Below are positions 1 to 64,000 of a DNA stretch of 64,000 nt, one piece after another. Where the stretch lies: the IMG/VR virus record IMGVR_UViG_3300023174_000034, one strand, 5' to 3'. Position 1 is the first letter of the stretch. Each line of letters opens with the position of its first letter. The position numbers were made by a program, and so were the translations under genes. The notes beneath the pieces are model-generated. The model made no database searches, had not been told where the DNA came from, and saw only the letters and a program-made list of their open reading frames with translations. This DNA is from a virus (lineage: Duplodnaviria > Heunggongvirae > Uroviricota > Caudoviricetes).

Positions 1-2
1 CC

Positions 3-12000: not shown

Positions 12001-14255
12001 TAACTGGTTCCTCGAGAGTCGATTCGTATGTAGTCAACTTGCTTGAATGGACGATATACAATATCAAGCCCAGCAGGAGTAACGTAATCCGTATTGATTT
12101 TGATATATGGATCAGCAACATAATTCACGCCAGAGTAACTAACAACAACGTTGGATACACCGGTTGATTTCAATACAACGTTACCTGTAGCAGTCATAGT
12201 ACCAATGCCAGGCAGTGGTGCTGTGAATGTCACACTAGGTACAAAATTGTACGCTAGATTTGAAGTGATACGAGCGCCACTGACTGTGTAAATTGGCAAG
12301 TCTTGGGTGCTGGTACTGACCAAGTGCAACACTGTGCCAACATCAGTTGTGATTTCTTCCACTCGATAGATTCTTCTGCGAACTTCCGGATCAGCATCAT
12401 TTGCAAAAATAATACGTGTGCCTGGAGTAAGTTCTCGGGTGATACCATTGGGCATTTGAACAATGTATTTGTTCTTGCCTTCTACTTCTTGGAATGCATC
12501 AGTCACAACAAAATCAAGAATATCAATTGGACTCTTGGCCTGGCGACCATAATCAAACAAATAAATGTCTGGGTCAAATTCAATGATCGGACGTTTTCCA
12601 CGCTGAACGCCAGTTAAATCAAGCAGTAACGGATCTTCACGGTACTGTGCGGCTAGTTCAACGGTTTGAATATGGAACCAACGATTACTACGGCTCCAGC
12701 CGTTTAGGTCACGACTGGCACGATTGATCGTGATGTAGTCAGGCTCTGTCAGGCGTGATGTATTTGCATACTGCTCAGGTACACTGAAATTACCGATGTT
12801 AATCAGTTTGATTGCAGTACCAACGCCTTCAACAATATATGCATTGCCTGCATAACGAGCAGGAACGATTGTGTTATCGAATCGTACATGTAGTCCGTTG
12901 GTGAATTTAACTTTGTTCGGACTTGTGTAGTTGATCTTATTCAGGATGTCGGCGACAACATCAATTGATGCTGTGCCAGGCTCTACCAAACGAATAATAC
13001 CAAAGAAATCTGGATTGCTATCGTCTTGATAATATAACTCTGTCAACGGTGCAGTAACTGGCTCAAGTTCTTGAAAGTATCCATTTGGTGCTTTGATAAA
13101 CTCTACGTTTGCGTATTGTGTGCCAGCACGTACATATACTTTTTCACCAATGGCAATTTCTGTTGTGGGAACTAGTTTAATCAGTTGACGGCCATTGCCA
13201 GCATCAACGGTGTCGATACGGAACACACCAAAACGACTCTGCGATGGTACAGTAGTGCCATATTCAAAACCTTCGCCGGTGTAATCAAAACTGCCAGTTG
13301 CACCAGTAGTACTGCCTGTGTCAAAGTTGCCAGGGTCTGTCCACTGGTCTGCAACAGAGTCTTGATTCAAGAAGATAATTGTTTTGCCATTGAGGCCTTC
13401 GCTGACACCATCAAAGCCGCCAATGTTTTTAATAACATTGTTCAAATGACTCTGCACTTGGTTGTAGCTGAGTGTGGTTGCAAAATCCACTGTGGCGGCC
13501 AATTGAGCACGAGTTGCACTACCTTGAGCATCTGTCGTGGGCACTGTAAATTCAATCGTACCATTGTCAATGCCGTTGTTTCGCAAACCATAAATTTGTC
13601 GATTTAATATTTCTGATGCCACGCTGGATGTACCAGTTACCCCTGGGCGAATCTGAATCCAGAATGGATTGTTGGCTTGGTTAACACGGAACTTGTATGT
13701 TGTTCCTTTGACCAATGTAATGATAGGATTACGGTCAGTTCCAAATTCTGTAAACTGGTAACTTTGACTTGCACTAGAACGAGTAACATTATATTCTAAC
13801 GCAATATCAACAGTTGATGCTGTTACTGTGACTTCAGGTGGACCGTCGGGCAACCATAGGTATTGTGTGAAGTTAACAAATTTATCAAAATCAAACACCC
13901 CATCAAAACTGTAACTTTGATTTGTAAACAAACGACTATGGTCATTTGTGAAACCACCGTAGTATGCAATCTGTTGCAACAGGTCTTGATAGTTTGCATA
14001 AAAGCTAGTCTTGCCTTGCCCTGCATCAACAATGGTGCCTGCCTCAACTTGATAGTTCTGACGTTCAGTGCTGATCTCTGTTACGTATGTGTCTCCAGTT
14101 TTCCATGTGGGAGTGTCTTGTCGACCAACATACGAATCAAGGCGCACTGAAGAATCTGCTTCACTGACCAATTGGTCAATAGTTGCCGCCAAGAACTTAC
14201 GGTTAGAATCGCTTCTAAATATCTCGGGTAAGTAGTTAATGCTTTTGGTTACCAT
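3..14255 (-). CDS. Giant virion/baseplate structural protein (>4,750 aa, C-terminus beyond left edge); baseplate-wedge gp7-like position, with GxGY repeat modules and FG-GAP repeats
   Basis: ATG at 14255 (MVTKSINYLPEIFRSDSNRKFLAATIDQLV...) lies 10 nt after the gp6-like stop. Spot translations at 14255, ~4900, ~3130, ~1230 and 3-60 are all in the same open frame. The ORF track lists no long minus ORF here, consistent with no stop before the window edge. Confidence 0.88.
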   Translation of the reverse strand, partial: MVTKSINYLPEIFRSDSNRKFLAATIDQLVSEADSSVRLDSYVGRQDTPTWKTGDTYVTEISTERQNYQVEAGTIVDAGQGKTSFYANYQDLLQQIAYYGGFTNDHSRLFTNQSYSFDGVFDFDKFVNFTQYLWLPDGPPEVTVTASTVDIALEYNVTRSSASQSYQFTEFGTDRNPIITLVKGTTYKFRVNQANNPFWIQIRPGVTGTSSVASEILNRQIYGLRNNGIDNGTIEFTVPTTDAQGSATRAQLAATVDFATTLSYNQVQSHLNNVIKNIGGFDGVSEGLNGKTIIFLNQDSVADQWTDPGNFDTGSTTGATGSFDYTGEGFEYGTTVPSQSRFGVFRIDTVDAGNGRQLIKLVPTTEIAIGEKVYVRAGTQYANVEFIKAPNGYFQELEPVTAPLTELYYQDDSNPDFFGIIRLVEPGTASIDVVADILNKINYTSPNKVKFTNGLHVRFDNTIVPARYAGNAYIVEGVGTAIKLINIGNFSVPEQYANTSRLTEPDYITINRASRDLNGWSRSNRWFHIQTVELAAQYREDPLLLDLTGVQRGKRPIIEFDPDIYLFDYGRQAKSPIDILDFVVTDAFQEVEGKNKYIVQMPNGITRELTPGTRIIFANDADPEVRRRIYRVEEITTDVGTVLHLVSTSTQDLPIYTVSGARITSNLAYNFVPSVTFTAPLPGIGTMTATGNVVLKSTGVSNVVVSYSGVNYVADPYIKINTDYVTPAGLDIVYRPFKQVDYIRIDSRGTSYSYAANVVLSNPNEYWATVTNAQISTTGLTFEIAAGNIPNPVVTKALATTSGNLNITFSNVGLGYFQSNVTATISAPTTPAGVTATVNYVYLHANGAIKSISLLNPGSGYLTNPTLTISTTGNTYAASTGNIGTVASTSTTLWDYLVPGMQIIANGIIGGSIITAVDNGANLVTINAPAVIANRSLETPVFGISAVEAGDIWTFKSNVDAGTYATVQTTVIDHTVITVDDTGMLDVGMAVCGGLQPIEISNIVITAVPTRIITATEHNLQNGDLVYVRDVLGTTDLNYARFYVYRVSETAIELYSDAGLTTGNEQDSRNYGDYISGGTLTAYTIDYGLTTVNRVISSTQFETTRTVRVKPGTKLVFGGVTAQAFARSDNNSIYNITVTNPGSGYTTAPNVAVWYNGSGNPATATAITNDDIISYINVTTNGNGYAISSGITVDVVSGLELTTSQTVTHGTDILYFANSDDLIPVQPGWLVFLITAVNGDEIYTDFGQTPYATTDTTGPYDADYRFFMDVSKTNAQILTVDSIDSDRLILSNVIDSLDSDGEQIDLPAGSRIFVTAQNRFFTTDGRGSGARVAGNTKTGFLLVNEVLEGTVVTLNSVLGIQPGMVFQTLADTLLADIRVTAVDSYINRITLSRAVTLPSATPVKLSNNAVMSVELEQAEIDYIAISDEGAGYASAPVATIQPRYPSVTLLATCLGTPGLVNYKDINDRTLDVFYPGNRVLAVSSFTDIVVGSKITSSFDSNGIGITTGADIPVVVGFVYEQTASNTFEARVIVDIDQSAFVDVEVIFTLAAEALSLINLENSAIDVNDTTPETYEAGDTVLVNTPANKTQTATNIVAYNQYYFNGTEWLPAQQKSNINQEPLFDAFNTDGYSAADATAYPGSKFFGTKIFGYRVGTGTQDPVLKFPLVYKNFNNVGDIEFSNYFQNESFNYLNGFNEDTVAISNFVLKQKTDAGFKLKNIWTQITEDSKQYQSITSEFDGTTNYFEIDVTPLESKTIPYLKVYVAGKRVPETAYTVDQYGGRRAVVINSNYLTTGDLVVVKVYSKQQSVLGRYDTPINLDYNPLNSSFNFLTLGQIRNHLVAQTDNNYGVVGQALGSNNLRDLNTKSWQGSILQHASSMSMPSLFMIDKDLDIVQATEYAQREYVKFKNRFLDQAGKIQVNVKDIPGSVDTIMSSIMLGKSSMAPWYDSDMLMWGSKFKTKTTLPVLNTRQRTYLIPNTFDPTVLSRRSVLVYLKDTTDSTYRQLIIGIDYTFATDISSIVIADHVVLKYTTQFDIVDCTNTTECYVPETPTKLGLYPKFIPTMLLDTTYRVPTQVIQGHDGSLTPAFGDYRDQLLMELELRIYNNIKVNYDDTLLEIFNTLPGHYRSSDYTRNEFDQLLTRSFLSWIGTNKLDYSENKWFNPNDPWSWNYKGFTDLQGNELPGYWRGIYKQYYDTDRPHYAPWEMLGFSQQPSWWEGAYGPAPYTSGNKVLWEDLEAGRILQGARAGIDTRFARPGLSKIVPVDYNGNLIEPVKLLVANFNADDTSLSFAIGDHGPVETAWRRSSNYPYAVQIAMMLARPAFYIGTLFDNSRYKYDTEIGQIVYSGTRQRLTPNSLLVPNIGLGTATPVLTAGYANWVRDYLKYKGIDSASKLSDSLTKLDVRLNYRVAGFTDKKMLEVIAEQSSPGGSGRNIVVPDENYRVYLNKSTPIKRLTYSAVIVEKTDRGYKVGGYDASRPYFTVVPSEPNNNSYTLTEVNQSVAVYKDYKLLKLAVPYGTEFTNLQQIADFFVSYSRYLRSIGFVFSDVDPDLGITRDWDLSIRELLTWVQQGWRTGSVIILSPIGSKITVVSENGVVDNISNKSDGNRLLDQNFSLIRHGEYSVTRDNGVFTATALYNKMIALADLTLVSYEHVLIFDNTTVFNDVIYQPELGNRQYRLRLIGYKSGNWNGQLNAPGYIYNDETVADWVQNASYNLGSLVAYKDKYYMALQRVPESTQFDFTYWRPIDKDQIKTGLLTNFSNAANSFRGFYDPDQMNRNEIFDQYSNGLIGFRNRDYLQDLGIDRTSQLKFYQGYIKQKGTKNAITSLTAGQFDRVSSEVSYYEEWALRVGEYGATGSDQFIEVTLDEQQFTEDPSTIVLSNLGESDVSGAINFNPRTIYRTSEEIYSKNIVKARSDYRPRISDNVTAGYPRIDDIDGTMYDIANYQNYFGLVANLGSGYKLWVAVDTDKMWNIYRATETDILLVSITRVTPTTLLFVFDKPHVTSPGEFVVVKNFNDNSFDGFYRVITVEDGLSITVTGYRGLSFFQQVSTATGSGVYLRMKSVRFASVSNIIDFTPPHGWRDKDRVWIDNDTATDVWGVFEKTDGWAFNQVLPLRLGEDRYQEGYGAEVKLSVDNQLILAGTPRFTTGSLLGLRVINPGANYESPAVRISYPTGPTGQLAQFTALKDTGTLVLANLITSGYGYTFAPNVTVVDQYTTVTTAETLTDEYLFLSAGDMGRVYLGDYISGRGIPDESQVVDITEAQFKIKIDGPPVPTFSSATSMTAGLGEKTFVTSVTANSTSIVPDQGIRIYKTNDNTVYMEGYVVSFVDQTLVVNVEILFGSGSSTSWLVTTALSVRSGTQVTFSRGLAGGVRARLTPTTIDYIQVVDGGSGFTINPQIDIVGGGGTGARAVAAISGGVIQSVTVTNAGSGYYETPEITLLTNNATPVDLRVKLKSTTVANLIISDKGQDYREPVLVIQADTRDRGIDAAATLNFYGNGGVSSVTVTNRGKSYGNTSIITIENSVSGSGFLGNVNVYANGAVGNVSVYTTGSGYATATATANIYYGGGSGATGNIGHTVDGIGDFISGTVLSYGQGYLVPPTVEVVDLSGSGSGAIVEAIMPTGQVKTFLRPNQTLTGVEETQLIKPFNSDAREFGYSIDLGTTLAAIGAPGTYAEQGGVLVSQTLGSQWISYQMLFPPTLEPGDRFGHSVAISDDQQWIYVGAPGANKVYAYGKRTQAYQRVTLTPVLNQLTYSTNLTGLRSAQELKVLGSSGKIYEPNFDYTVDSIGSIYWADYARIASQDKIYITRQRLQTNIIPTVIRNLTQRTYQLASRPETIDQLLVYGATGRVFVPNKEYTVIGSNLIFLDDSFLTEPSIVANQRDVFYQLVETIVPTDAINADANFGWSVKIDKGGYRLLVGAPDMDEENADLETIPSAGRAYVFSRSYEVILSIGTLSVFTLEAVRSVLSVSLDSILLAENVDYIIEGSSVVFTVAPRNGAKIKIDTNFFNIIQVIPCPSIVNLGRFGYSVDIAPDNTSFAIGSPGYRDDDYYNGTVYRYVNKGLFYGTATTEKTFLDVALTLGDTIKVNDRTVTFNEIVPGLINNVSAVYGSVSTKVSFTPNVGLVVGDTLVGPDIPEAFQVKFVEWADTTLPLVANVIVSAPVTITAGDALSFVRAGDNLSKIARNFEQGGLVAVDTAVVDGLLKITIGDQYALTRLDILPGTGTALDGLGLKIYELTQTLQHPRYGVPERFGTKVAIDDTGKTVLIASEGGNTLKTSTFDNETTLFDKDTTRFIDSLNASGAVYVYDYLNPPGETLANPGKLLYNQVLQNAYVLTGDNFGSSVDINNGWALVGAENSSYHSTLAGATHLFINDGNVKGWGRLRERGEEIDIDYINKGLIYDKKKQVNLKDLDYFDPAKGKILGIADQDLDYKSSYDPAQYNRGSLATVTIATDSSWGEMQETQTWWDLSLARYINYEQGPINYRSNRWGQLFPDSMIQVCEWVGSNYLPSDYAAEVGDGQAKYSDNSAYVENTYFDIQSGLIKTKYYYWVINKQSIDTTKTRRTNSVVTLERLITNPQAQGIPYFAAIANNAFNLYNVKNSLNSDRTIFRVEYSRVLGDIISHNEYELIQQGSNNSEIPSKLISKLIDSLSGENSTGSVVPDLKLSDADAYGINNLPRQSMIKNSTGAVQVFVTFVNNVLATKKITYTKNFARLLKQEPVPVAGTGYYNTSVDTVEQLQYIPSSELFV

Positions 14256-39194: not shown

Positions 39195-39842
39195 ATGGCT
39201 TATCTTAAAGAGAATCTTACATTTGATGCGGCACGTATGGAAGTCCTCACTGAGGAATCCAACGACGGCAAAGGTGGTAAGAATCTCTATTTGAAAGGTA
39301 TATGTATCGAAGGTGGTATCAAGAATGAAAACCAACGTATATATCCCATTCCAGAGATCCAACGAGCCGTTGGCACAATCAACGAAACACTCAAGGGCGG
39401 CAAGTCTGTTCTTGGTGAAGTTGATCACCCAGATGACCTTAAAATCAATCTTGATCGTGTGAGCCACATGATTACAGATATGTGGATGGACGGTCACGCT
39501 GGCATTGGAAAATTAAAGATTCTACCAACACCGATGGGTAACCTAGTGAAAACTATGTTAGAGTCGGGTGTGAAGTTAGGAGTGAGCTCTCGTGGTAGCG
39601 GTAACGTAAACGAGAGTTCTGGTCACGTCAGTGATTTTGAAATAATCACTGTAGACATTGTAGCACAACCATCTGCGCCACATGCGTATCCACATGCCAT
39701 TTATGAAGGGCTTCTTAACATGAAGCATGGTCATAGAGTTATGGAAATTGCAGGCGAAGCAGGACAAAATCAAAAAGTTCAGAAATATCTGAAAGAGGCT
39801 GTTGTGCGCCTTATCAATGACTTAAAAATAGGAGATAGGTAA
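39195..39842 (+). CDS. gp21: Prohead core protein protease, T4 gp21-like
   Basis: KNENQRIYP, LGEVDHP, INLDRVSH, LPTPMG, LGVSSRGSG, DIVAQPSAP. Confidence 0.96.
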   Translation: MAYLKENLTFDAARMEVLTEESNDGKGGKNLYLKGICIEGGIKNENQRIYPIPEIQRAVGTINETLKGGKSVLGEVDHPDDLKINLDRVSHMITDMWMDGHAGIGKLKILPTPMGNLVKTMLESGVKLGVSSRGSGNVNESSGHVSDFEIITVDIVAQPSAPHAYPHAIYEGLLNMKHGHRVMEIAGEAGQNQKVQKYLKEAVVRLINDLKIGDR

Positions 39843-40942
39843 TGTTTGATGCTATCAAACCTTTGTTGGATGCAGGTATCATCAACGAAGACACCCGTCA
39901 GGCTATTAACGAAGCATGGGAATCTAAGATTAACGAAGCACGTGAACAAGCACGTGCCGAGCTACGCGAAGAATTTGCTACTCGTTACGAGCACGACAAG
40001 AGTGTCATGGTTGAAGCCCTTGACAGCATGGTTACCGAGGCCTTGTCTGTAGAAATACAAGAATTTGCAGAAGAAAAGAAAGCACTAGCAGAAGACCGTG
40101 TACGTTTCCAACGTACCATGTCTGAAAATGCTGGTAAGTTTGATCAATTCATGGTTAGCAAGCTAGCAGAAGAATTGAAAGAACTACGTGCAGACCGCAA
40201 GCAGTATCAAGAAGGCATCAAGCGTCTTGAGAAGTTTGTTATCACTGCATTGGCTGAAGAGATTCAAGAATTTGAAACAGATAAGAAAGCCGTGGTAGAA
40301 GCTCGTGTACGTATGGTGTCAGAAGCCAAACAACAACTAGCTGATCTAAAAGGTCAGTTTATTGCACGTAGCGCCAAGTTGGTCAAAGAAGCTGTTGCTA
40401 CTAATCTAGACACAGAGATCACACAACTCAAAGAAGACATCCAGTCAGCACGTGAAAACATGTTTGGCCGTCGTTTATTTGAAGCATTTGCTAGCGAATT
40501 TGCAGTCACTCACTTGAATGAGAACCGTGAAATTCTAAAACTTCGTGCAGAGAAATCTGCTACAGAGCAAGCACTAGTAGAAGCAAAAGCTCAAGCTGAA
40601 GCAAAGACCGCTTTGGTGGAAAGTAAAGATAAAGAAATTAAGATTATCAAAGAGTCAACCACTCGCAAGGAAGTCCTTGCAACATTGTTGAAGCCTTTGA
40701 ACAAGGAGAAAGCCGCAATCATGAGCGATCTTCTTGAATCAGTGCAAGCTGAAAAACTTCAGTCTGCATTTGATAAGTATCTACCAGCAGTATTGAATAA
40801 TACATCTGCCCCTAAGCAAGCTCCTAAAGCTGTGCTTAGTGAAGGACGTTCAGCAGTAACTGGTGATAAGACTGCTAAGGTCAGCGCAATTGATGATACC
40901 ACTAACGTGATTGAAATCAAGCGTTTAGCAGGGCTAAAGTAA
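39842..40942 (+). CDS. gp22: Prohead core scaffolding protein, T4 gp22-like
   Basis: Coiled-coil Glu/Ala/Lys-rich, FGRRLFEAF motif; between gp21 and gp23. Confidence 0.85.
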   Translation: MFDAIKPLLDAGIINEDTRQAINEAWESKINEAREQARAELREEFATRYEHDKSVMVEALDSMVTEALSVEIQEFAEEKKALAEDRVRFQRTMSENAGKFDQFMVSKLAEELKELRADRKQYQEGIKRLEKFVITALAEEIQEFETDKKAVVEARVRMVSEAKQQLADLKGQFIARSAKLVKEAVATNLDTEITQLKEDIQSARENMFGRRLFEAFASEFAVTHLNENREILKLRAEKSATEQALVEAKAQAEAKTALVESKDKEIKIIKESTTRKEVLATLLKPLNKEKAAIMSDLLESVQAEKLQSAFDKYLPAVLNNTSAPKQAPKAVLSEGRSAVTGDKTAKVSAIDDTTNVIEIKRLAGLK

Positions 40943-40969
40943 AACCCTAAACAGGAGAAGGAAAAAGAA

Positions 40970-42151
40970 ATGACAACCGCACTACTAGAGAGCCGTTGGG
41001 GCGAAACCAAAGATGCCCTGTTAGAAGGCCTAAATGGTTCTAAAAGAACTACAATGGGTGTAATCCTAGAGAACACCCGCAAGTACCTGGCAGAAAATGC
41101 AACAGGTGGCGCTACAGCTTCCAGCAACGTAGCTACACTGAATCGCGTGATTCTTCCAGTAATTCGTCGTGTTATGCCTACCGTTATTGCTAACGAAATC
41201 GTTGGTGTTCAACCAATGACAGGCCCAGTTGCACAAATCCATACGCTACGTGTACGTTATGCTGACACAGTCAGTGCAACTACAACTGCTGATGGCGCAA
41301 CAGCAGGTGACGAAGCACTAAGTCCATTCAAGATTGCTACTGCTTACTCTGGTTCCAGTTCAACTTCTAGAGCTGTTAACACAGCCACCCTAGAAGGTGT
41401 ACCAGGTAACCGTATTAACGTTCAAATCTTGAAACAAGTCGTTGAAGCCAAAACCCGCAAATTGTCTGCACGTTGGACATTTGAGGCTGCTCAAGACGCA
41501 CAAGCCATGCATGGTTTGGATGTTGAAGCAGAAATCATGGCAGCATTGGCTCAAGAAATCACAGTTGAAATCGACCAAGAAATCCTAGCTAGCCTACGTT
41601 CTTTGGCCGCAACTGAATTCACATATGATCAGTCAAGCGTTTCTGGTACAGCTACATTCGTTGGTGACGAGCATGCCGCATTGGCAGTTCTAATCAACCG
41701 TACAGCTAACTTGATCGCTCAGCGCACACGTCGTGGCGCGGCAAACTGGGCAGTTGTATCTGCTGAGGCTCTAACAGTTCTTCAGTCTGCTACAACTTCT
41801 GCTTTTGCTCGCACTACAGAAGGCACTTTCGAAGCACCTACAAACACCAAGTTTGTTGGTACATTGAATGGCGCAATGCGTGTATACGTTGACAGCTATG
41901 CTAACACAGGCACAGCAGTTCTTATCGGTTACAAAGGTTCTAGCGAGGCAGATGCTGCCGCGTTCTATTGCCCATACGTACCGTTGATGAGCTCTGGTGT
42001 TGTTCTTGATCCAGCTACTTTTGAACCAGTAGTTGGCTTTATGACACGTTATGGCTATGTGGAATTGACAAACACAGCAAGCTCATTGGGCAATGCTGGT
42101 GACTATCTAGGCAAGATTGGTATCACTTCTGGTACTTTGTCTTTCCAGTAA
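40970..42151 (+). CDS. gp23: Major capsid protein, T4 gp23-like
   Basis: IRRVMPTVIANEIVGVQPMTGP, VEAKTRKLSARWTFEAAQD, EIDQEI, FYCPYVPL, FEPVVGFMTRYG. Confidence 0.97.
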   Translation: MTTALLESRWGETKDALLEGLNGSKRTTMGVILENTRKYLAENATGGATASSNVATLNRVILPVIRRVMPTVIANEIVGVQPMTGPVAQIHTLRVRYADTVSATTTADGATAGDEALSPFKIATAYSGSSSTSRAVNTATLEGVPGNRINVQILKQVVEAKTRKLSARWTFEAAQDAQAMHGLDVEAEIMAALAQEITVEIDQEILASLRSLAATEFTYDQSSVSGTATFVGDEHAALAVLINRTANLIAQRTRRGAANWAVVSAEALTVLQSATTSAFARTTEGTFEAPTNTKFVGTLNGAMRVYVDSYANTGTAVLIGYKGSSEADAAAFYCPYVPLMSSGVVLDPATFEPVVGFMTRYGYVELTNTASSLGNAGDYLGKIGITSGTLSFQ

Positions 42152-42190
42152 TCACAAAAGTAAAATCGACTCAGGGATGGGAAGAGCAGG

Positions 42191-42216
42191 AAAGCGCCGC
42201 AAGGCGCTTTTTTGTT
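42191..42216 (+). terminator. Intrinsic terminator after the major capsid gene
   Basis: AAAGCGCC-GCAA-GGCGCTTT followed by TTTGTT. Confidence 0.9.
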
Positions 42217-42222
42217 GACTGT

Positions 42223-42915
42223 TTAACCTCGACCCAGTATTTTTCTATTGCCAAATGCTATGTTGGTCCACACAGGCGGTGTTGTTTTTTCTAGCACAAG
42301 TTCTATTTCGTAACAACCATTACTGGGATGCATTTCTCCAGCACTGACAGTCTTTGCATTGCGGCCGTCATTGTGTGTTACACCGTCTACTGTGTTGCCG
42401 TCGACTACTACTTGTTTTACAACCCATCCGTCGTTCCAGTCTTGATCGTTGTCGCACATGTGTCTTATGCGATAGCTCAGATGCGGCAATGCTTGCCATA
42501 CTTCTTCTAATAGATTGAATGGTGCATAAAAGCGTTTGTGATCTCGGTTGTATCTGCTGGGCAAGTCAGGCTTTTTCTCGTACAGCCACACATGTGGTAC
42601 ACAGATGATCATGTGCCCACCAACTTTCAGCACACGGTGCCATTCTTGTAGTGCAGTTTTCCAATCAGTCACATGCTCGTACACATGGCTGGCGTACACA
42701 GTGTCCTGGCTTTGATCTGCAAAAGGCAAATGCACACCGTCATATCCAGGATAGTCAATGTCCACACCAATCACATGCGGGAAAATAGTTTCGCAACCTT
42801 GTCCGCCATCGTAGCCTATTTCTAGGGCATTGGCACCAAAGTATTTTCTAAAGAAACCAGACTGTTGTTTCTGGTCAAAAGATTTGGCAGTTTCAGGACC
42901 TATTTTTCTATTCAT
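42223..42915 (-). CDS. Class I SAM-dependent methyltransferase (Methyltransf_11-like)
   Basis: ALEIGYDGG motif I, GVD, LPFADQSQDTVYASHVYEHV, EWHRVLKVGGHMIICVP. Confidence 0.88.
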   Translation of the reverse strand: MNRKIGPETAKSFDQKQQSGFFRKYFGANALEIGYDGGQGCETIFPHVIGVDIDYPGYDGVHLPFADQSQDTVYASHVYEHVTDWKTALQEWHRVLKVGGHMIICVPHVWLYEKKPDLPSRYNRDHKRFYAPFNLLEEVWQALPHLSYRIRHMCDNDQDWNDGWVVKQVVVDGNTVDGVTHNDGRNAKTVSAGEMHPSNGCYEIELVLEKTTPPVWTNIAFGNRKILGRG

Positions 42916-42932
42916 ACAAATAATTATCAGTT

Positions 42933-42965
42933 AAAAAAATACCCGAAGCATTTCTGCTCCGGGTA
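42933..42965 (-). terminator. Intrinsic terminator on minus strand, just upstream of the methyltransferase
   Basis: UACCCGGAGCA-GAAA-UGCUUCGGGUA (11 bp with one G-U, GNRA loop) followed by U7. Confidence 0.85.
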
Positions 42966-43000
42966 CCAACTAAACAGGATGCTGTCTGACTAGCACCTGT
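42933..43000 (-). ncRNA. Candidate ~68-nt small RNA (hairpin, single-stranded linker, terminator)
   Basis: Bounded by a sigma70 promoter and an intrinsic terminator, with no credible ORF; sequence ACAGGUGCUAGUCAGACAGCAUCCUGUUUAGUUGGUACCCGGAGCAGAAAUGCUUCGGGUAUUUUUUU. Confidence 0.65.
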
Positions 43001-43004
43001 ATGT

Positions 43005-43033
43005 ATTATATAGCAGACACAACTACAAAGCAA
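43005..43033 (-). promoter_or_regulatory. Sigma70-type promoter driving the candidate sRNA
   Basis: Minus strand TTGCTT (43033-43028), 17-nt spacer, TATAAT (43010-43005). Confidence 0.75.
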
Positions 43034-43042
43034 ACTATTAGG

Positions 43043-43132
43043 TAAATATAATGTTCACTTGACACTCAAGTAACTTATGCGGTACCCACCGCGTAGGCCT
43101 AGAACGCTAAATCATATTAAGGAGAAAAACAA
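43043..43132 (+). promoter_or_regulatory. Late promoter plus structured three-way-junction 5' leader
   Basis: TAAATA at 43043-43048; P1 UGUUC/GAACG, P2 ACUUGA/UCAAGU, P3 CUUAUGCGGU/ACCGCGUAGG; then TAAGGAG RBS. Confidence 0.6.
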
Positions 43133-43876
43133 ATGGGACGTCCTCTAAATCATAAATTCTTTGGCGACTTAAATTACGCCGCAGGCGGTGCAATGGTCGG
43201 TGGTGAAGGTGTTGCTAGCGTAGCCGCAGTCACAGGCTTGACTGGCATGGCCGCAAGTGGTCCGTTTGCAATTCTAGCCGCAGATATCACTGCACCAGAA
43301 ATTGCCGGCGGTACAAAACCAACATTGACATTCACTGCTACCAGCGCAACAGCAGGTACAGTTGCAGTTGTGACACAAGGTTCAGGTTACACATCAGCAC
43401 CAACAGTGACCGTTCGCGGCTCACTAGCAGGCGGTAGTACCACAGCAACTCCAGCAGCCACATTGACCACAACTCGTTTGAATGCTATCATTCCACAAGT
43501 TCGTATTGCTGGCACAAACCGTACCAGCGGTAATGACATCATTGCACAAAAAGGTAGCAAGCGTTTTCAAGTACAGTCACAAGACGGCTCGGGTGTTTGC
43601 AAGCTAGTGCCACGTACACCAGCAGCCGCACTAGAAATGGCTATTGCGGCAACAGACAGCCAGAGCAACACATACTGGGTAAAAAAGATCAGCAAGAACA
43701 AAGTTCAACTGATAAGAAACACCCTAGTAGGCTCAACCTGGGATATCGCTGATGGCGATACAGCAAAATGGACTATCACTGGTTCAGCTGTGGCTCCAGT
43801 TGGCGGCGGAAACCCATCAGCAACTGATGGCCCATCAGTGGTCAGCATCGGCACAGTGTTACTAAACAACGCTTAA
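43133..43876 (+). CDS. Virion structural protein (possibly abundant head decoration), with a GSGYTSAP module
   Basis: Late promoter, strong RBS, own terminator; Ala/Thr/Gly-rich; IIAQKGSKRFQV and YWVKKIS motifs. Confidence 0.6.
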   Translation: MGRPLNHKFFGDLNYAAGGAMVGGEGVASVAAVTGLTGMAASGPFAILAADITAPEIAGGTKPTLTFTATSATAGTVAVVTQGSGYTSAPTVTVRGSLAGGSTTATPAATLTTTRLNAIIPQVRIAGTNRTSGNDIIAQKGSKRFQVQSQDGSGVCKLVPRTPAAALEMAIAATDSQSNTYWVKKISKNKVQLIRNTLVGSTWDIADGDTAKWTITGSAVAPVGGGNPSATDGPSVVSIGTVLLNNA

Positions 43877-43968: not shown

Positions 43969-44643
43969 ATGAGCTTTATTAAAAACGTCAGCGGTCCATA
44001 TACGATAAACACCATCAATCATGATGATCCTATTATTTTGGACAGCAACAATGTTATCATCAATGGTAGCCTGTCTGTTTATGGCTCAAACACATTCTTG
44101 GGCAACATTACATCAGCTGAAGTACAACAAACCTACATTGTTGACAACGTTATTACCCTAAATGCAAATGCTTCAACTTTAACAACTCCTTATCCAGGTC
44201 CATCTGGTATTGAAGTCGAACGCGGATCCGTAGAATACAATGCTATTCTGCGTTGGTATGAACCAAGCAAGACTTGGCAAATTCGTTCAAACGTTGATGG
44301 CGCAGTGTACTACAACCTTGTGGCAACCACAACAGGTAACACTCGTGTGGTTGATGACGTTGCACCACAGTTAGGCGGCAATTTGTTCACAAACAGTTAT
44401 GCTATTACAAACATAACAGGTAACATTTTCCTAGATCCAGCAACCACAGTGAGCCTCAATGGTAATCTTAGTTTACAAATGGCAGGCAATATCTGGGGTA
44501 ATGCACAAGCATACAATACCTTAATTTCAAACCAAGTTGGTGCAGGCGGCACCGGCTTGTATGTCACAACCGGCGATGGTGGCGTGACAAGCCAAGAATT
44601 GATTACAAAAAGACGTGCGATTGTTTATTCAATTGTATTTTAA
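43969..44643 (+). CDS. Virion structural/fibre-associated protein
   Basis: IVDNVITLN...SGIEVERG...LRWYE...W and DVAPQLGGNL fibre motifs; late promoter at 43943-43948. Confidence 0.7.
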   Translation: MSFIKNVSGPYTINTINHDDPIILDSNNVIINGSLSVYGSNTFLGNITSAEVQQTYIVDNVITLNANASTLTTPYPGPSGIEVERGSVEYNAILRWYEPSKTWQIRSNVDGAVYYNLVATTTGNTRVVDDVAPQLGGNLFTNSYAITNITGNIFLDPATTVSLNGNLSLQMAGNIWGNAQAYNTLISNQVGAGGTGLYVTTGDGGVTSQELITKRRAIVYSIVF

Positions 44644-44655
44644 CAGGAACGAGAA

Positions 44656-44970
44656 ATGATTAAAAGTGTAAAACTACTGCAAGGAACACCGCAAGCAATT
44701 ATCACAGCCAACGCTGATATCGCTGTGACGACCTTATACCTTTGCAATCGATCAACCAGCACAGTAACAACAAGTGTATTTTTGGTCAGCAATGGATCAA
44801 CTGATTCTTACGACAATATAGTTTATAACGAAGTTCAGATTGCAGGTAAGGATACCTTGGTAATTGACAACGAACGCTTGCTATTGGGTACAGGTGATTC
44901 TATCCAGGCCAACGTTGACGTACTATCAGACAACAGAATTGTTGCGACCTTGAGCTGGACAAACATCTAA
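44656..44970 (+). CDS. Small virion structural protein
   Basis: 104-aa beta-rich protein (TTLYLCN...LLLGTGDSI) with AGGA RBS, inside the structural operon. Confidence 0.65.
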   Translation: MIKSVKLLQGTPQAIITANADIAVTTLYLCNRSTSTVTTSVFLVSNGSTDSYDNIVYNEVQIAGKDTLVIDNERLLLGTGDSIQANVDVLSDNRIVATLSWTNI

Positions 44971-56798: not shown

Positions 56799-59700
56799 AT
56801 GGCATTAACAAGACCACGCTATAGTCAGATACCGGACACCGATTGGAAACAAAGTGTCCGGGTCGCCACAACCGCAGACGTAGGTAACGTGATGTTGGCA
56901 GCAATGCCAAACTCAGTTGACGGCGTCACGCTTAATTTTTATGATCGTGTTCTATTAAAGTCGCAGGCCAATGCGGCACAAAATGGTATCTACTATGTCA
57001 AGGCAGTGGGTACAGGTGCCAATGGTATTTGGGAACGTACCAAAGATGCCAGCTCGGGTGGTGCGCTGGGTGCAGTTACTCCTTCAATTGTCACACAAGT
57101 TGAAGAAGGCACGATCAACAAGAATCGTACTTTCAAACTAACCACAACAGGCAATATTGATCTTGGCACAACTGATTTAAGTTTTGGTGTACAAGCCGCT
57201 GAACCAGCTGGCGCCACAGGACAGCTACAGTTTGCCAACGTCAACAATGTGATTGGTGGTGCAACAACTACCAGCTATGACTATGTAACTGGTAACTTGG
57301 TATTAACCGGTAATGTAAACACCACACTGCTGTATCAAAATGGCAAGCGTGTACCGCAAGTATTTACAAGTGCAACACCACCATCTACTCCAGCAGTAGG
57401 TGATCAATGGTATCAAATTGGCACAGATATTCTATATGAATGGTTGCAGGATGGTGCCACAGCATACTGGATTGACGTAAGCGGTGCTACCATTGCCAAC
57501 ATCAATCCCATCACAGGGGAAAACGTTGGTAGTTTAGTTGTCAATGGCGGCAACGACTCTACAAGTTCCACAACAGGTGCGTTACAAGTAGTTGGCGGAA
57601 CAGGTATCACTGGCAACTTAAATGTTGGCGGTTCTATTACATTTGGCGGTGGATCACTTGGCAGCGACCTTGTTGTTAATTCTACTGCACCGTCAACGAG
57701 TGAAACAACAGGCGCCATTCGTATTGCAAGCCCGGGCGGTTTAGGCGTCGGTGGTAATATTTGGGTTGGTGGCACGTTTGTTGCCAACAGCCGTATTCCG
57801 AGCACAAGCATCGGAACTGGCGCTATTATACTTCCGGGCACAGGCGGACTAGGTGTTGGTGGTAATGTATTTGTTGGGCAAAACTTAAATGTTTTAGGCA
57901 ACATCACCGGTGGCGGTATACGTCAGTCTATCAGTTCTGGAGCTCCGGCCAATCCTGTAGTAGGCGACCAGTGGTACCAACTTGGTACAGACATCTTGTA
58001 CCAATATGTAAGTGACGGTACTGGTAGTTATTGGGTTGACGTAGCAGGTGCAACAGTTGCCAACATCACGCAACAAACAAACACAGTAAACGACATTCAC
58101 TTGGTAAGCGGCACACCAAGCACAAGTTCAGACACTGGTGCATTGATTGTCAGTGGTGGTGTTGGTATACAAGGTAACTTGAATCTACAAGGTGGTTTTA
58201 ATATCACTGGTGGCAACTTAATTGCCAATCAAAATGTCACAAGCACAAACACCACAACTGGCTCAATGGTTGTGACTGGCCAAGGCGGCATTGGTGTTGG
58301 CGGCAATATCAACATTGGCGGCAATCTAAGTGTTGCACAAACTGCCAGCTTTTTACAAAATGTAATCATATCTGCAAATTTAGTTGCCAGCGGAACTTAT
58401 TTTGCCGCAGGTGGTCTAAGCGTCACAAATGGCAATATTGTTACAACCGGTACTAGTGCTCAAATTGGTGGACTAACAATTACCAATGGTGCAATCAGTG
58501 GAATTGCAAGTTTAGGTGTCACTGGCGCAACCAATATTGGTGGTGACTTAACAGTAACTGGTAACATTGCAGGTGGCGGTGTACGCAAGTATGCTCAAAC
58601 TGCCAAACCCACAAATGCTTTTCCTGGTGATGTCTGGTACAAGACTGATACTGACGTATACTATACCTATGTAAATGATGGCACAGCCAGTTACTGGATT
58701 GACTATACCAGTGCAACAGTTGCCAATATTACTCCACAAACAAATCAAACACTCAGTGATATTGTAATTGTAAGTGGTACTCCTGCAACCAACACCACAA
58801 CTGGTGCCCTACAAGTACAAGGTGGCGCTGGTATCACTGGTAATGTGTTTACCGGTAATTTATCTACTGGCACAGTGTCCGCTGGTGCATTTACCTATGC
58901 AAACGGTGTAAGTATTCTTCTTGGAAATGAAGGTACATATTCGAATGCAAACGTCGTTGCTTATTTGTCTGCAAGCAATATCAGTGTTGGTGGTAACCTA
59001 ACTGCCGGTGGATCATATTTCTCTGCAGGTGGCCTAAGTGTCACAGCGGGCAATATACTAGCAACAGGAGCTCGTGCAGTTATTGGTGGTTTGACTATTG
59101 AAAACGGCGGCATTAGTAGCCTTGCAAGTCTAAATGTCATTGGTTCAGGCACCTTAGGTGGCGACTTTGCAATCACTGGTAACGTTACCGCTGGCGGCTT
59201 GAGAAAGTATGCACAAGTTGGTGCACCAGCCAATCCGGTTGTGGGCGATGTTTGGTACAAAACGGACACAGATGTATTCTACCAATACGTAAACGATGGA
59301 ACCAACAAGTACTGGATTGACTATACCAGTGCTACCGTTTCAAACGCCAGCCCAACTAGCCCACAAAGTCTACAAGACTTACAAATCGTTTCAGGTACAC
59401 CTTCAACAGGCTCTGGCACAGGCGCACTACAAGTAACAGGTGGAGCCGCAGTAACAGGTAACTTGTTCTCTGGCAACCTAAGCACAACAACCGTTGCCGC
59501 AAGCAACTTCACTTATGCAAATGGCGTAAGTATTCTTGCTGGTAACGAAGGCACATATTCAAATGCCAATGTCCTATCATACTTGGCAGCAAATGGTATC
59601 ACTGCTACCACAGCAGGAATCAGCACCACTGGTAATTTGACAGCCAGCGGATCATATCTATCAGCAGGTGGCTTCACTGCCACAGCAGGAAATATTCGTA

Positions 59701-62700
59701 CAACATCTGCCAATATTGGCGGTGTGATAATTGAGTCAGGTGGCATTGGCCAGCTGGCAAGTCTTGGTGTACTAGGCGCGGCAACAATTGGTGGTGACGT
59801 TGCCATCACTGGTAACATCACAGCAGGCGGACTACGCAAATATGCACAGGCAGGTGCACCGGCTAACCCAGTTGTGGGTGACGTTTGGTACAAAACTGAC
59901 ACTGATGTTTACTATCAGTACATCAATGATGGCACAAACAAATATTGGATTGACTATTCAAGTGCAACTGTTTCTAATGCAAGTCCAACTACATCTCAAA
60001 GCCTACAAGACCTACAAATTGTAAGTGGTACGCAAAGTACAAGCACAGGAACTGGTGCGTTGGTTGTACAAGGTGGTATTGGTGCAAGTGGTAATGTATT
60101 TGTTGGCAACGTATCCACTGCCACAGTGTCTGCTTCAAACTTTACCTATGCCAACGGTGTGAGTATTTTACTGGGCAACGAAGGCACTTACTCAAATGCC
60201 AATGTCACTGCTTACCTAACAGCTAGAACAACAACCATCAGTGATGGATTTTTGAGCACAGCTGGACTAACAGTCACAGCAGGCAATCTTAAAACTACAT
60301 CTGCCAATATTGGCGGATTGATAATTGAAAACAACAGCATTAGCCAATTGGCAAGTATTGGTGTTGTTGGGGCTGCAACCATTGGTGCTGACCTAGCAGT
60401 TACAGGAAATATCACAGGCGGTGGCCTACGCAAGTATGCACAAGCAGGTGCTCCAGCAAATCCAATTGTGGGTGACGTTTGGTACAAGACTGACACTGAT
60501 GTGTACTATCAATACATCAATGACGGCACAAACAAATACTGGGTTGACTATGCGGGTGCAACTGTAAGCAATGCAAGCATTACCAGCAGTCAAATCTCTT
60601 ACGACATTGTTGTTACTACAGATACTCAGAGCACAAGTACCACCACAGGTGCTGTTCGCGTTCAGGGTGGTATTGGCTTAATTGGCAATATCTACACCAC
60701 AGGCATTGCTGACATTGGCGGTAACCTGACTGCCGGCAATATCAAAGCCAACAACAATCTACAAACAAACACACTAGCAGTGGTTCAAAATGCCACAGTT
60801 GGTGGCACCCTAACCGTAACTGGTGCAGTAGCCACTGGTAACTTGACCACAGGCAATATTACAGGTTATGGGTTTACTACTGACGCCGGCAACCTAACTG
60901 CAACTGGTCAGTATTTTTCTGCAGGTGGTGTAAGTGCCACAGCAGGCAATATTTCAATTGGAAACATTGCAGGTTACGGATTCACTGTAAGCAATGGCAA
61001 TATCACATCTACCGGTACTCGTGCTGTTATTGGCGGATTAGAAATCATCAATGGCGGGTTTGGTTCGCTAGCAAGTTTAGGTGTAACAGGTGCGGCAACA
61101 TTTGGTGCCAACGTTGATATTACAGGTCGTGTGACTGGTGGTGGTATCCGTAAAACATCCAGCACCACTGCGCCTGCCAGCCCAATTGTTGGCGACACAT
61201 GGTACAAAACAGACACAGATACTTTATATCAATATATCAATGATGGCACAAGCAACTATTGGATTGATATCTCTGGAGCCACTGTTGCCAACATCAGTCC
61301 ACAAACAAATCAAACGCTAAACGACATTGTTATCGTAAGTGGTACACCTGCAACCAATACCACAAGTGGTGCCTTGCAAGTTCAAGGTGGCGCTGGCATA
61401 ACTGGCAACGTGTTTGCTGGCAATTTGTCAACTACAACTGTAGCGGCAAGTAACTTCACTTATGCCAACGGCGTAAGCATTTTACTAGGCAACGAAGGCA
61501 CATATTCAAATGCCAACGTCACTGCCTACCTAACAGCCAAGACAGTGGCAATTAGTGACGCCGGCAATGTTACTTCAAGTGGTACATATTTCAACACAGC
61601 TGGTCTAACAGTTCTCAACGGAAATGTAACAGCAACCGGTACAACTGCTACCATTGGCGGGCTGGTAATCAACAACGGCTCACTACCAAGTTTACCTACA
61701 TTGGGTGTATTAGGAGCCGCTACTATTGGTGGCGACATAGCAGTCACTGGTAATATCACAGCAGGTGGTTTACGCAAGTACGCTCAAGTAGGAGCTCCTA
61801 CAAATCCAGTGGTAGGTGATGTTTGGTACAAGACTGATACTGATGTATTTTATCAATATGTCAATGACGGTACTAACAAATATTGGATTGACTACACCAG
61901 TGCCACTGTAAGCAATGCAAACCCAACAAGCCCACAGAGTTTACAGGATCTACAAATTGTCAGTGGCACACCAAGCACAAGTACCACAAGTGGTGCTCTA
62001 CAAGTAACTGGCGGCGCTGGTATTTCTGGCAATGTCAATGCAGGTAACGTAACAACAGGCACACTAACAGCCACAACAGTGAACTCGTCTGGTGTTATTG
62101 TTGGCACAGGATTCACTTATGCAAATGGTGTGAGTATCCTGGTTGGTAACGAAGGCACATACTCTAATTCAAATGTTACTGCTTACCTAACAGCTAGAAC
62201 AACAACCATCAGTGATGGCTTCTTAAGCACAGCAGGAATGACAGTTACTGCTGGTAACTTGAAAACAACTTCTGCCAACATTGGTGGTGTTGTAATTGAG
62301 TCAGGTGGCATTGGGTCATTGGCAAGTTTGAACGTAATTGGTGGCGCAACAATTGGTGGCGATATTGCTATCACCGGCAACATCACTGGCGGCGGTATCC
62401 GTAAAACATCAAGTGCATCTGCACCTGCCACTCCAACCGTTGGCGATCAGTGGTACAAAACTGATACTGATACACTATACCAATACATCAACGATGGTAC
62501 GAGCAAGTACTGGATTGACGTAGCAGGTGCTACAGTTTCTAATGCAAGCATTACTAGCAGCCAGATTGCCTACGATATTGTAGTCACAACAGATACTCAG
62601 TCAACAAGTACAACCACCGGTGCTATCCGAGTACAAGGTGGTATTGGTCTAATTGGTAACATTTACACAACCGGTATTGCCGACTTTGGCGGTAACTTAA

Positions 62701-63998
62701 CTGCTGGCAATATCTTATCTAACAACAACTTGCAAACAACAACCTTGCAAGTCACAAGTGATGCAAACGTTACTGGCAACTTGTCTGTTAACAGAATCAC
62801 AGCCAGTGGTAATATCACCAGCTCAGGACAATATTTTAGTGCGGCAGGCCTGAGTGTAACCAATGGCAACATTATCACAACTGGTACAACTGCTACTATT
62901 GCTGGGTTGCAAATCACCAATGGTGCATTGCCAACATTGCCTACACTAGGCGTAACTGGACTAGCAACATTTGGTGCAAATATTGACGTCACCGGCAGTG
63001 TCAATGTCACCGGCAACATCACAGGCGGCGGACTACGCAAGTATGCCCAAATTGGTGCTCCTGCCAATCCAGTGGTGGGTGATGTTTGGTACAAAACCGA
63101 TACCGACGTATACTATCAGTATATCAATGATGGCACAAACAAATATTGGATTGACTATTCAAGTGCAACAGTAAGCAACGCAAGTCCGACAAGTCTACAA
63201 AGCATTCAAGATCTAGCAGTGGTTGGTGGTACAGTAAGCACAAGCACATCAACAGGTGCAATAACAATTCTCGGAGGTGTTGGTTTATCCGGCAATATCA
63301 ATGTAGGTGGCAATGCTTCTGTTGGTAATTTGGTCGCCAGCGGTGTAGTCTCTGGGACTGGATTCACTTATGCCAATGGTGTGAGTATCCTGGTTGGTAA
63401 CGAGGGAACATACTCTAACTCAAACGTAACTGCTTACCTAACAGCACGTACTACAACCATCAGTGATGGATATTTGAGCACCGCTGGCATTACTGTAACT
63501 GCTGGTAACATCTTTGCCTCGAGTGCAAATATTGCAGGCGTAATAATCAGCTCAGGCGGATTAAGTAGTCTTGCTAGTTTGGGTGTAGTAGGTGGTGCAA
63601 CCATTGGCGGTGATCTTGCAGTCACTGGCAACATAACTGGTGGTGGTATTCGCAAAACAACAAGCATTAGTGCTCCTACTAGTCCGGTAGTTGGCGACCA
63701 GTGGTACAAACAAGATACAGATACCTTGTATCAGTACATCAATGATGGCACAACCAAATATTGGGTTGACGTGGCAGGCGCTACCGTTTCCAATGCTCGT
63801 ACAAGTGGCGATCAAATTGCCTACGATATTGTAGTTACAACAGACACACAATCGACTAGCCCAACAACAGGCGCAGTAAGAGTACAAGGTGGTATTGGTC
63901 TAATTGGTAACATCTATACCACAGGCATTGTGGACATAGGCGGAAACCTACGTGCCGACAATATCACAGCAAACAACAATGTTCAGACCAATACTCTG
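56799..63998 (+). CDS. Giant repetitive tail fibre (>2,400 aa, C-terminus beyond right edge)
   Basis: ATG at 56799 (MALTRPRYSQIPDTDWKQSVRVATT...DRVLLKSQ...NGIY...W) after TAAATA at 56772-56777; same frame open at 63960-63998; absent from the ORF track because there is no stop in the window. Confidence 0.88.
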   Translation, partial: MALTRPRYSQIPDTDWKQSVRVATTADVGNVMLAAMPNSVDGVTLNFYDRVLLKSQANAAQNGIYYVKAVGTGANGIWERTKDASSGGALGAVTPSIVTQVEEGTINKNRTFKLTTTGNIDLGTTDLSFGVQAAEPAGATGQLQFANVNNVIGGATTTSYDYVTGNLVLTGNVNTTLLYQNGKRVPQVFTSATPPSTPAVGDQWYQIGTDILYEWLQDGATAYWIDVSGATIANINPITGENVGSLVVNGGNDSTSSTTGALQVVGGTGITGNLNVGGSITFGGGSLGSDLVVNSTAPSTSETTGAIRIASPGGLGVGGNIWVGGTFVANSRIPSTSIGTGAIILPGTGGLGVGGNVFVGQNLNVLGNITGGGIRQSISSGAPANPVVGDQWYQLGTDILYQYVSDGTGSYWVDVAGATVANITQQTNTVNDIHLVSGTPSTSSDTGALIVSGGVGIQGNLNLQGGFNITGGNLIANQNVTSTNTTTGSMVVTGQGGIGVGGNINIGGNLSVAQTASFLQNVIISANLVASGTYFAAGGLSVTNGNIVTTGTSAQIGGLTITNGAISGIASLGVTGATNIGGDLTVTGNIAGGGVRKYAQTAKPTNAFPGDVWYKTDTDVYYTYVNDGTASYWIDYTSATVANITPQTNQTLSDIVIVSGTPATNTTTGALQVQGGAGITGNVFTGNLSTGTVSAGAFTYANGVSILLGNEGTYSNANVVAYLSASNISVGGNLTAGGSYFSAGGLSVTAGNILATGARAVIGGLTIENGGISSLASLNVIGSGTLGGDFAITGNVTAGGLRKYAQVGAPANPVVGDVWYKTDTDVFYQYVNDGTNKYWIDYTSATVSNASPTSPQSLQDLQIVSGTPSTGSGTGALQVTGGAAVTGNLFSGNLSTTTVAASNFTYANGVSILAGNEGTYSNANVLSYLAANGITATTAGISTTGNLTASGSYLSAGGFTATAGNIRTTSANIGGVIIESGGIGQLASLGVLGAATIGGDVAITGNITAGGLRKYAQAGAPANPVVGDVWYKTDTDVYYQYINDGTNKYWIDYSSATVSNASPTTSQSLQDLQIVSGTQSTSTGTGALVVQGGIGASGNVFVGNVSTATVSASNFTYANGVSILLGNEGTYSNANVTAYLTARTTTISDGFLSTAGLTVTAGNLKTTSANIGGLIIENNSISQLASIGVVGAATIGADLAVTGNITGGGLRKYAQAGAPANPIVGDVWYKTDTDVYYQYINDGTNKYWVDYAGATVSNASITSSQISYDIVVTTDTQSTSTTTGAVRVQGGIGLIGNIYTTGIADIGGNLTAGNIKANNNLQTNTLAVVQNATVGGTLTVTGAVATGNLTTGNITGYGFTTDAGNLTATGQYFSAGGVSATAGNISIGNIAGYGFTVSNGNITSTGTRAVIGGLEIINGGFGSLASLGVTGAATFGANVDITGRVTGGGIRKTSSTTAPASPIVGDTWYKTDTDTLYQYINDGTSNYWIDISGATVANISPQTNQTLNDIVIVSGTPATNTTSGALQVQGGAGITGNVFAGNLSTTTVAASNFTYANGVSILLGNEGTYSNANVTAYLTAKTVAISDAGNVTSSGTYFNTAGLTVLNGNVTATGTTATIGGLVINNGSLPSLPTLGVLGAATIGGDIAVTGNITAGGLRKYAQVGAPTNPVVGDVWYKTDTDVFYQYVNDGTNKYWIDYTSATVSNANPTSPQSLQDLQIVSGTPSTSTTSGALQVTGGAGISGNVNAGNVTTGTLTATTVNSSGVIVGTGFTYANGVSILVGNEGTYSNSNVTAYLTARTTTISDGFLSTAGMTVTAGNLKTTSANIGGVVIESGGIGSLASLNVIGGATIGGDIAITGNITGGGIRKTSSASAPATPTVGDQWYKTDTDTLYQYINDGTSKYWIDVAGATVSNASITSSQIAYDIVVTTDTQSTSTTTGAIRVQGGIGLIGNIYTTGIADFGGNLTAGNILSNNNLQTTTLQVTSDANVTGNLSVNRITASGNITSSGQYFSAAGLSVTNGNIITTGTTATIAGLQITNGALPTLPTLGVTGLATFGANIDVTGSVNVTGNITGGGLRKYAQIGAPANPVVGDVWYKTDTDVYYQYINDGTNKYWIDYSSATVSNASPTSLQSIQDLAVVGGTVSTSTSTGAITILGGVGLSGNINVGGNASVGNLVASGVVSGTGFTYANGVSILVGNEGTYSNSNVTAYLTARTTTISDGYLSTAGITVTAGNIFASSANIAGVIISSGGLSSLASLGVVGGATIGGDLAVTGNITGGGIRKTTSISAPTSPVVGDQWYKQDTDTLYQYINDGTTKYWVDVAGATVSNARTSGDQIAYDIVVTTDTQSTSPTTGAVRVQGGIGLIGNIYTTGIVDIGGNLRADNITANNNVQTNTL

Positions 63999-64000
63999 CA
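57345..64000 (+). repeat. 11 in-frame ~190-240 aa tandem units, each with a P..P.VGD.WY..DTD..YQY.NDGT..YW.D knob
   Basis: GD.WY motifs at about 57399, 57962, 58626, 59243, 59877, 60471, 61191, 61815, 62442, 63078 and 63693. Confidence 0.92.

Follow-up and report, generated by a model that had tools for sequence, protein, structure and literature searches.

Does a giant phage control its own major capsid gene with a small RNA encoded just beyond the 3' end of that gene? The question arose from a 64,000-nucleotide stretch of DNA (hereafter the window) from an uncultured freshwater T4-like giant phage, in which CTAAACAGGA occurs only twice on either strand, at 40947-40956 and at 42970-42979. 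The first copy overlaps an AGGAG upstream of the capsid start codon, and the second lies within a candidate small RNA gene on the minus strand; the coordinates given for this repeat in an earlier note were right. The capsid gene itself (40970-42151, plus strand) encodes a gp23-type protein of 393 amino acids (Pfam Gp23, E=7.6e-99; PHROG 138, major head protein). Upstream of it lie a prohead protease gene (39195-39842) and a scaffold-like gene (39842-40942). The closest cultured capsid genes, those of Rak2/PA5oct-type jumbo phages, share ~68% DNA identity with it. Related contigs reach sizes of 355-371 kb, and one complete relative (G002) is 355 kb long. Elsewhere in the window, Rfam identified a Polynucleobacter-1 RNA motif (31198-31333, plus strand, 116.9 bits).

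The ~67-nt small RNA gene on the minus strand is very probably real and conserved. Based on a covariance model and the consensus fold, the predicted RNA spans ~66-68 nt, from an A at 43000-42998 to the end of the U-tract (42933-43000). It is preceded by a sigma-70-type promoter (43005-43033) made up of a -35 element, TTGCTT (43033-43028), a 17-nt spacer and a -10 element, TATAAT (43010-43005). The two hexamers are constant, and the sequence of the 17-nt spacer is different in nearly every homologue. The RNA is predicted to begin with hairpin 1 (42978-42997; GGUGCU, loop AGUCAGAC, AGCAUC), followed by a linker, CUGUUUAGUU, and a Rho-independent terminator with a U7 tail (42933-42966). The seed, UCCUGUUUAG (42970-42979), straddles the first two of these parts: its first 2 nt close hairpin 1, and the remaining 8 of its 10 nt lie in the consensus single-stranded linker (10 of 10 in L215 and L226). 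The seed is invariant in 18 of 20 homologues; in the other two, L218 and L226, it reads CUCCUGUU-AG, with one U lost.

Covariation supported this fold, with 100% of stem cells paired and double changes at five pairs. Hairpin 1 contains one compensatory pair, in L089, and four pairs of the terminator have changed on both sides, all cells of both elements being paired. The observed covariation score was reached by no shuffle, and RNAalifold independently recovered the same fold. In L215 and L228, the stem of hairpin 1 has been wholly replaced, with the loop UCAGAC and the seed retained. The retention of UCAGAC in the loop (42984-42991, minus strand) despite full stem replacement was observed in L226 as well as in L215 and L228, and such conservation suggests a second seed or a protein contact. 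The invariant block of the small RNA extends over 31 nt, much longer than the 10 nt that pair with the capsid leader; the hairpin loop should therefore serve some partner besides the capsid leader. One candidate target for a loop seed, a 10-mer at 120643 in G002, was rejected because it lies inside a coding frame. Its own promoter, an intrinsic terminator and a conserved accessible seed are traits that the RNA shares with trans-encoded base-pairing RNAs, and its architecture, as read from the sequence, is that of a classical trans-acting base-pairing RNA.

Seed-independent pattern scans and the covariance model (R1) detected the small RNA in 20 related contigs of viral and metagenomic origin. 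Sixteen of these homologues scored 59-103 bits with R1, and four divergent ones, found at the same locus, scored 23-54 bits. The self-contained gene with a sigma-70-type promoter that the earlier note had proposed thus exists, with conserved hexamers and 20 homologues. Its position is constant, just past the capsid terminator and pointing at the capsid gene. The carriers form one clade on both the protease and the scaffold trees, so that the co-occurrence of RNA and site represents a single evolutionary event. Two independent gains of the RNA, as might be read from a split of the carriers on the capsid tree, were ruled out by these flanking-gene trees. The split results from recombination within the capsid gene: in L089, L158 and L159, the C-terminal two thirds of the capsid protein group with RNA-less lineages, whereas the protease and scaffold genes group with those of the other carriers. 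Rfam contained no family for the small RNA. Its matches, including NsiR1 (RF02399; 24.6 bits against a gathering threshold of 39, so not a member), were sub-threshold and covered mostly the terminator. A search of cultured-phage DNA yielded no copy of the small RNA. Likewise, no analogous small RNA with a matching seed was found downstream of the capsid gene in 80 RNA-less relatives, where the only repeats are the ribosome-binding sites of the next gene.

The capsid gene has a terminator of its own (GCGCC-GCAA-GGCGC followed by T6; 42190-42215, plus strand), and in relatives the homologous terminator stands back to back with that of the small RNA. In the window, a SAM-dependent methyltransferase gene (42223-42915, minus strand; Pfam Methyltransf_11, E=3e-12) separates the small-RNA terminator from the capsid 3' end. 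This gene is a patchy insertion, present in the window, in L081 and, as a diverged copy, in L146 (L146:6209-6967); in L196, a gene sits at the same position. Most carriers lack it; one of these is L090, whose capsid protein and that of the window are 99% identical. In the window, the methyltransferase gene has no evident promoter and no good Shine-Dalgarno element of its own, and the small-RNA terminator lies 17 nt ahead of its start. Because it lacks these signals, its expression probably depends on read-through of the small-RNA terminator.

On the other side of the small RNA gene lies an Rfam freshwater-2 motif (43056-43135, plus strand, 56.3 bits), the leader of a gene at 43133-43876. A TAAATA box precedes the motif within this leader unit (43043-43135, plus strand). 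In most relatives, the freshwater-2 unit directly follows the capsid gene; the small-RNA cassette therefore appears to have been inserted after the capsid terminator and ahead of the presumed late promoter of the freshwater-2 unit.

The proposed target site, CUAAACAGGA (40947-40956, plus strand), occupies positions -23 to -14 relative to the capsid ATG at 40970. It is identical in all carriers with a readable capsid leader, and every such leader contains ACCCTAAACAGGA. Besides the gene, its promoter, its fold and their conservation, complementarity is evident in all carriers: the perfect antisense match that the earlier note had described for the window recurs in every carrier with a readable leader except L218 and L226, where the leader is unchanged and the pairing shifts to 8 bp, a bulge and 2 bp. 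The leader contains two Shine-Dalgarno-like elements (40953-40963). The distal one, AGGAG (40953-40957), is 12 nt from the ATG, and its AGGA would be covered by the pairing. The proximal one, AAGGA (40959-40963), to which the earlier note had also drawn attention, is better spaced, in fact optimally so, and lies outside the pairing, which stops 3 nt before it. This dual arrangement is kept in relatives.

Parts of the leader are conserved irrespective of the small RNA. ACCCTAA and AGGAG are found family-wide even where the RNA is missing, and the bases between CCCTA and GGA vary in the 80 RNA-less capsid relatives (AAAT, AATT, AAA-, AATC). A leader-pattern scan recovered the same leader 10-mer in two groups of RNA-less lineages (L014/L206/L230 and L211/L214/L225). 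The site is therefore not dependent on the RNA and is probably older than it, the ancestral state having been reconstructed from a biased sample. These data also bear on the suggestion that the small RNA targets the capsid mRNA of competing relatives. Most RNA-less relatives in a sample based on the major capsid protein deviate at the centre of the site, but pairing through G-U would still be open to C-to-U variants, and some RNA-less lineages have the exact site; overall, the idea is weakly supported at best.

Other details proposed for the pairing were retained only in part. The extension to 13 bp by ACC/GGU across a 2-nt bulge is present in the window, but it involves a part of the RNA that varies between relatives. 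The toehold layout, in which a CAGG/CCUG lower stem holds CCUGU, is possible only in the subgroup with an ACAGG leader and is not conserved. Similarly, the 7-mer AACAGGA before the gene at 44656 is present at 44642, but it is retained only in the nearest relative, L090, and a second target at 44656 was rejected because the 7-mer is not conserved. The calculated hybrid energy of seed and capsid leader is -14.5 kcal/mol. Opening the mRNA would cost about 2.5 kcal/mol, and opening the RNA 8.0 kcal/mol for the window type, 4.2 kcal/mol for G002 and 0.3 kcal/mol for L215.

The length of the match alone carries little weight, as the earlier note had cautioned in calling a 10-mer only suggestive. When 72-nt RNAs were compared with the 67 start regions of the window, 16% of dinucleotide shuffles and 23% of natural 72-mers matched one or more of these regions with a perfect run of at least 10 nt. 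For a whole 355-kb genome, the figure estimated from k-mer counts rises to roughly 40-50% of trials; with the capsid start region specified beforehand, the chance is roughly 0.003. The 10-mer match alone is within chance. At both ends of the window (1-14000 and 56800-64000), the greedy ORF picker returned only short ORFs with poor start regions. These calls are probably spurious and located within very long genes that leave the window, and they slightly raise the count of start regions tested.

Scored by full-length duplex and accessibility, the capsid start region came first both among the 67 start regions of the window and among the 415 of the complete genome G002. The capsid was also first among 26 orthologue pairs. 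In all six genomes, one and the same RNA segment is predicted to pair with it in an unchanged register, which holds for no other orthologue group. By a 14-nt score, the capsid ranked 1-5 in four genomes and fell to about the 10th percentile in the window and G006, where the 5' ACAGG can sequester CCUG. No other conserved phage target was found among the available orthologue groups, and a third genomic copy of the capsid 10-mer, at 347735 in G002, was dismissed since it has no gene context. The capsid start region is thus the best predicted phage target with a register conserved across genomes.

We also compared the evolution of the leader bases between CCCTA and GGA in carriers and RNA-less lineages on a scaffold-protein tree, using sequences sampled regardless of their leader. 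Carriers showed no changes over a branch length of 1.20, and the RNA-less remainder showed 10 over a branch length of 3.33. With 3.6 changes expected in carriers, the probability of observing none was 0.028. A version of the test with contigs added through the leader pattern gave P=0.01 and was discarded, as such sampling favours the 10-mer. Other late leaders in the carrier clade have diverged freely. The compensatory changes sought in related phages were not found: both partners are invariant within the one clade of carriers, and the seed change in L218 and L226 has no counterpart in their leaders.

These observations can be read in several ways. The small RNA may be real, with a seed that serves host mRNAs, another phage message or a chaperone such as Hfq; the capsid match would then be fortuitous and would persist because both sequences are independently constrained and inherited together. 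We regard this as a serious possibility, though a somewhat doubtful one. Chance produces a match of this kind in 16-23% of trials, the carriers make up just one clade, and the leader 10-mer occurs in RNA-less lineages and appears ancestral in the biased sample, just as ACCCTAA and AGGAG are conserved across the family without the RNA. Capsid pairing leaves the 31-nt invariant block and the UCAGAC loop unexplained, UCCU is a generic anti-Shine-Dalgarno motif, and the altered seed of L218 and L226 is uncompensated. A fortuitous match fits less well, however, with a capsid leader that ranks first in two genomes and is the only register-conserved target, with the outcome of the constraint test (P=0.028) or with the failure to find another conserved phage target among the available orthologue groups. 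Taking these points together, we give the capsid leader close to an even chance of being a genuine target of the small RNA. If the match is fortuitous, the small RNA still needs a target. It is highly improbable that the element does not act in trans at all and instead serves the methyltransferase gene as its leader or attenuator, or works at the capsid 3' end on the DNA level or through convergent transcription. The terminator 17 nt before the start of a promoterless gene and the constant convergence of the unit with the capsid gene are what such an element would predict. Yet most genomes with the RNA (L089, L090, L155-L159 and others) have no methyltransferase gene, and the RNA is therefore not its riboswitch or leader. 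Strand-specific covariation and the terminator U-tract point to an RNA, the capsid gene's own terminator stands in between, and Rfam gave no riboswitch match. A cis-antisense RNA was likewise rejected, because the RNA stops short of the capsid terminator and is separated from its pairing site by 2 kb.

If the RNA does pair with the capsid leader, the direction of its effect depends in part on where the capsid mRNA begins. A degenerate late-promoter-like box, TAAAGTAA (40935-40942, plus strand), overlies the stop codon of the upstream scaffold-like gene; relatives have TAAATA, in CTATAAAT-like boxes, at the same place on the scaffold stop codon. Many structural or late genes are preceded, at a distance of ~20-33 nt, by TAAATA or TATAAATA boxes, which are probably T4-type late promoters; in the window, these genes are the ones at 14266 (minus strand), 24107 (minus strand), 32786, 36055, 37846, 38188, 43133, 43969, 47400, 51756, 52197 and 52604. 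By the spacing of T4 late promoters, a capsid-specific late transcript would start near 40948-40950, inside the site, so that only 7-9 nt of it would pair, at the extreme 5' end of the mRNA. Such pairing would be compatible with both stabilisation and repression; in longer read-through transcripts, the whole site would be present. The duplex might accordingly cap the 5' end of the capsid mRNA and shield it from 5'-end-dependent or GGAG-directed RNases, leaving the proximal Shine-Dalgarno element free. FasX of Streptococcus pyogenes pairs at the 5' end of ska mRNA and stabilises it, and antisense protection from RNase E occurs in cyanophage infection; if the late transcript starts inside the site, pairing over the first 8-9 nt of the capsid mRNA would resemble the FasX-ska case. 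The very large demand for capsid protein, a poor fit with repression, and the uncovered, optimally spaced AAGGA also favour such positive action, as do the box on the upstream stop codon and its counterparts before other late genes. We nevertheless consider it unlikely. The start site is placed by analogy with T4, the window has a degenerate form of the box, a site cut down to 7-9 nt means weaker pairing, and a sigma-70 promoter predicts that synthesis of the RNA falls as late mRNA peaks.

The explanation that best accounts for the data, which we put just short of an even chance, is that the small RNA pairs in trans with the capsid leader and lowers or delays 30S loading. The host-type (sigma-70) RNA polymerase would transcribe the stand-alone ~67-nt RNA, with its 5' hairpin, invariant single-stranded linker and intrinsic terminator, from its own promoter. 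The linker seed would then pair with the site at -23 to -14, forming a duplex that covers the distal AGGAG and ends 3 nt ahead of the proximal Shine-Dalgarno element. Made early, the RNA would titrate the first capsid messages, the most likely outcome being that 30S loading on capsid mRNA is reduced or delayed. Production of the RNA, its binding to the capsid leader and the direction of the effect are what we infer here from sequence comparison.

Among small phage-encoded RNAs, the c4 antisense RNA of P1 and P7 (Rfam RF01695) and the sar RNA of P22 base-pair with a phage gene and thereby block its ribosome-binding region. Both are components of temperate-phage immunity systems with ant/icd as targets, and they either overlap the target operon or are processed from it; by contrast, the RNA described here comes from a T4-like lytic phage, and its predicted site belongs to a late structural gene at a distance of 2 kb. 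In 42850-43200, Rfam gave no match to c4 (RF01695) at E values up to 10. The RNA resembles enterobacterial small RNAs of the Hfq type, which have a seed, a U-rich linker and a terminator, in its layout: a short hairpin at the 5' end is followed by a conserved seed that is single-stranded and by an intrinsic terminator ending in a U-tail. SviR, a small RNA of the Vibrio cholerae phage satellite PLE, acts on gp120 of phage ICP1; it has its own promoter and terminator and two seed regions, with promoter, seeds and terminator as the conserved parts, and it lowers translation of this late capsid-morphogenesis gene by pairing with its 5' UTR and its ribosome-binding site (bioRxiv 10.1101/2022.04.08.487710). 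The two systems are alike in directing a trans-acting RNA with its own promoter and terminator against the leader of a late capsid-type gene, an action that is predicted in our case. SviR, however, is satellite-encoded, anti-phage, 210-300 nt long and experimentally proven, whereas the present RNA is phage-encoded, ~67 nt long and predicted to act on the phage's own major capsid gene.

There is hardly any documented case in which a lytic phage uses small RNAs of its own to control its virion genes after transcription, and the nearest proven case is a satellite RNA directed at a phage. In a 2025 review of phage-derived small RNAs (PMC12197685), capsid genes do not appear among the targets. We propose only tentatively that a small RNA of a lytic T4-like giant phage gates or tunes translation of its own capsid mRNA, or protects the 5' end of that mRNA, and that its UCAGAC loop may act as a seed for a further target. 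If the pairing is true, it would add an RNA family absent from Rfam and show in compact form how widespread freshwater giant phages use RNA to dose or time their most abundant protein, with a self-directed RNA timer within the virion module.
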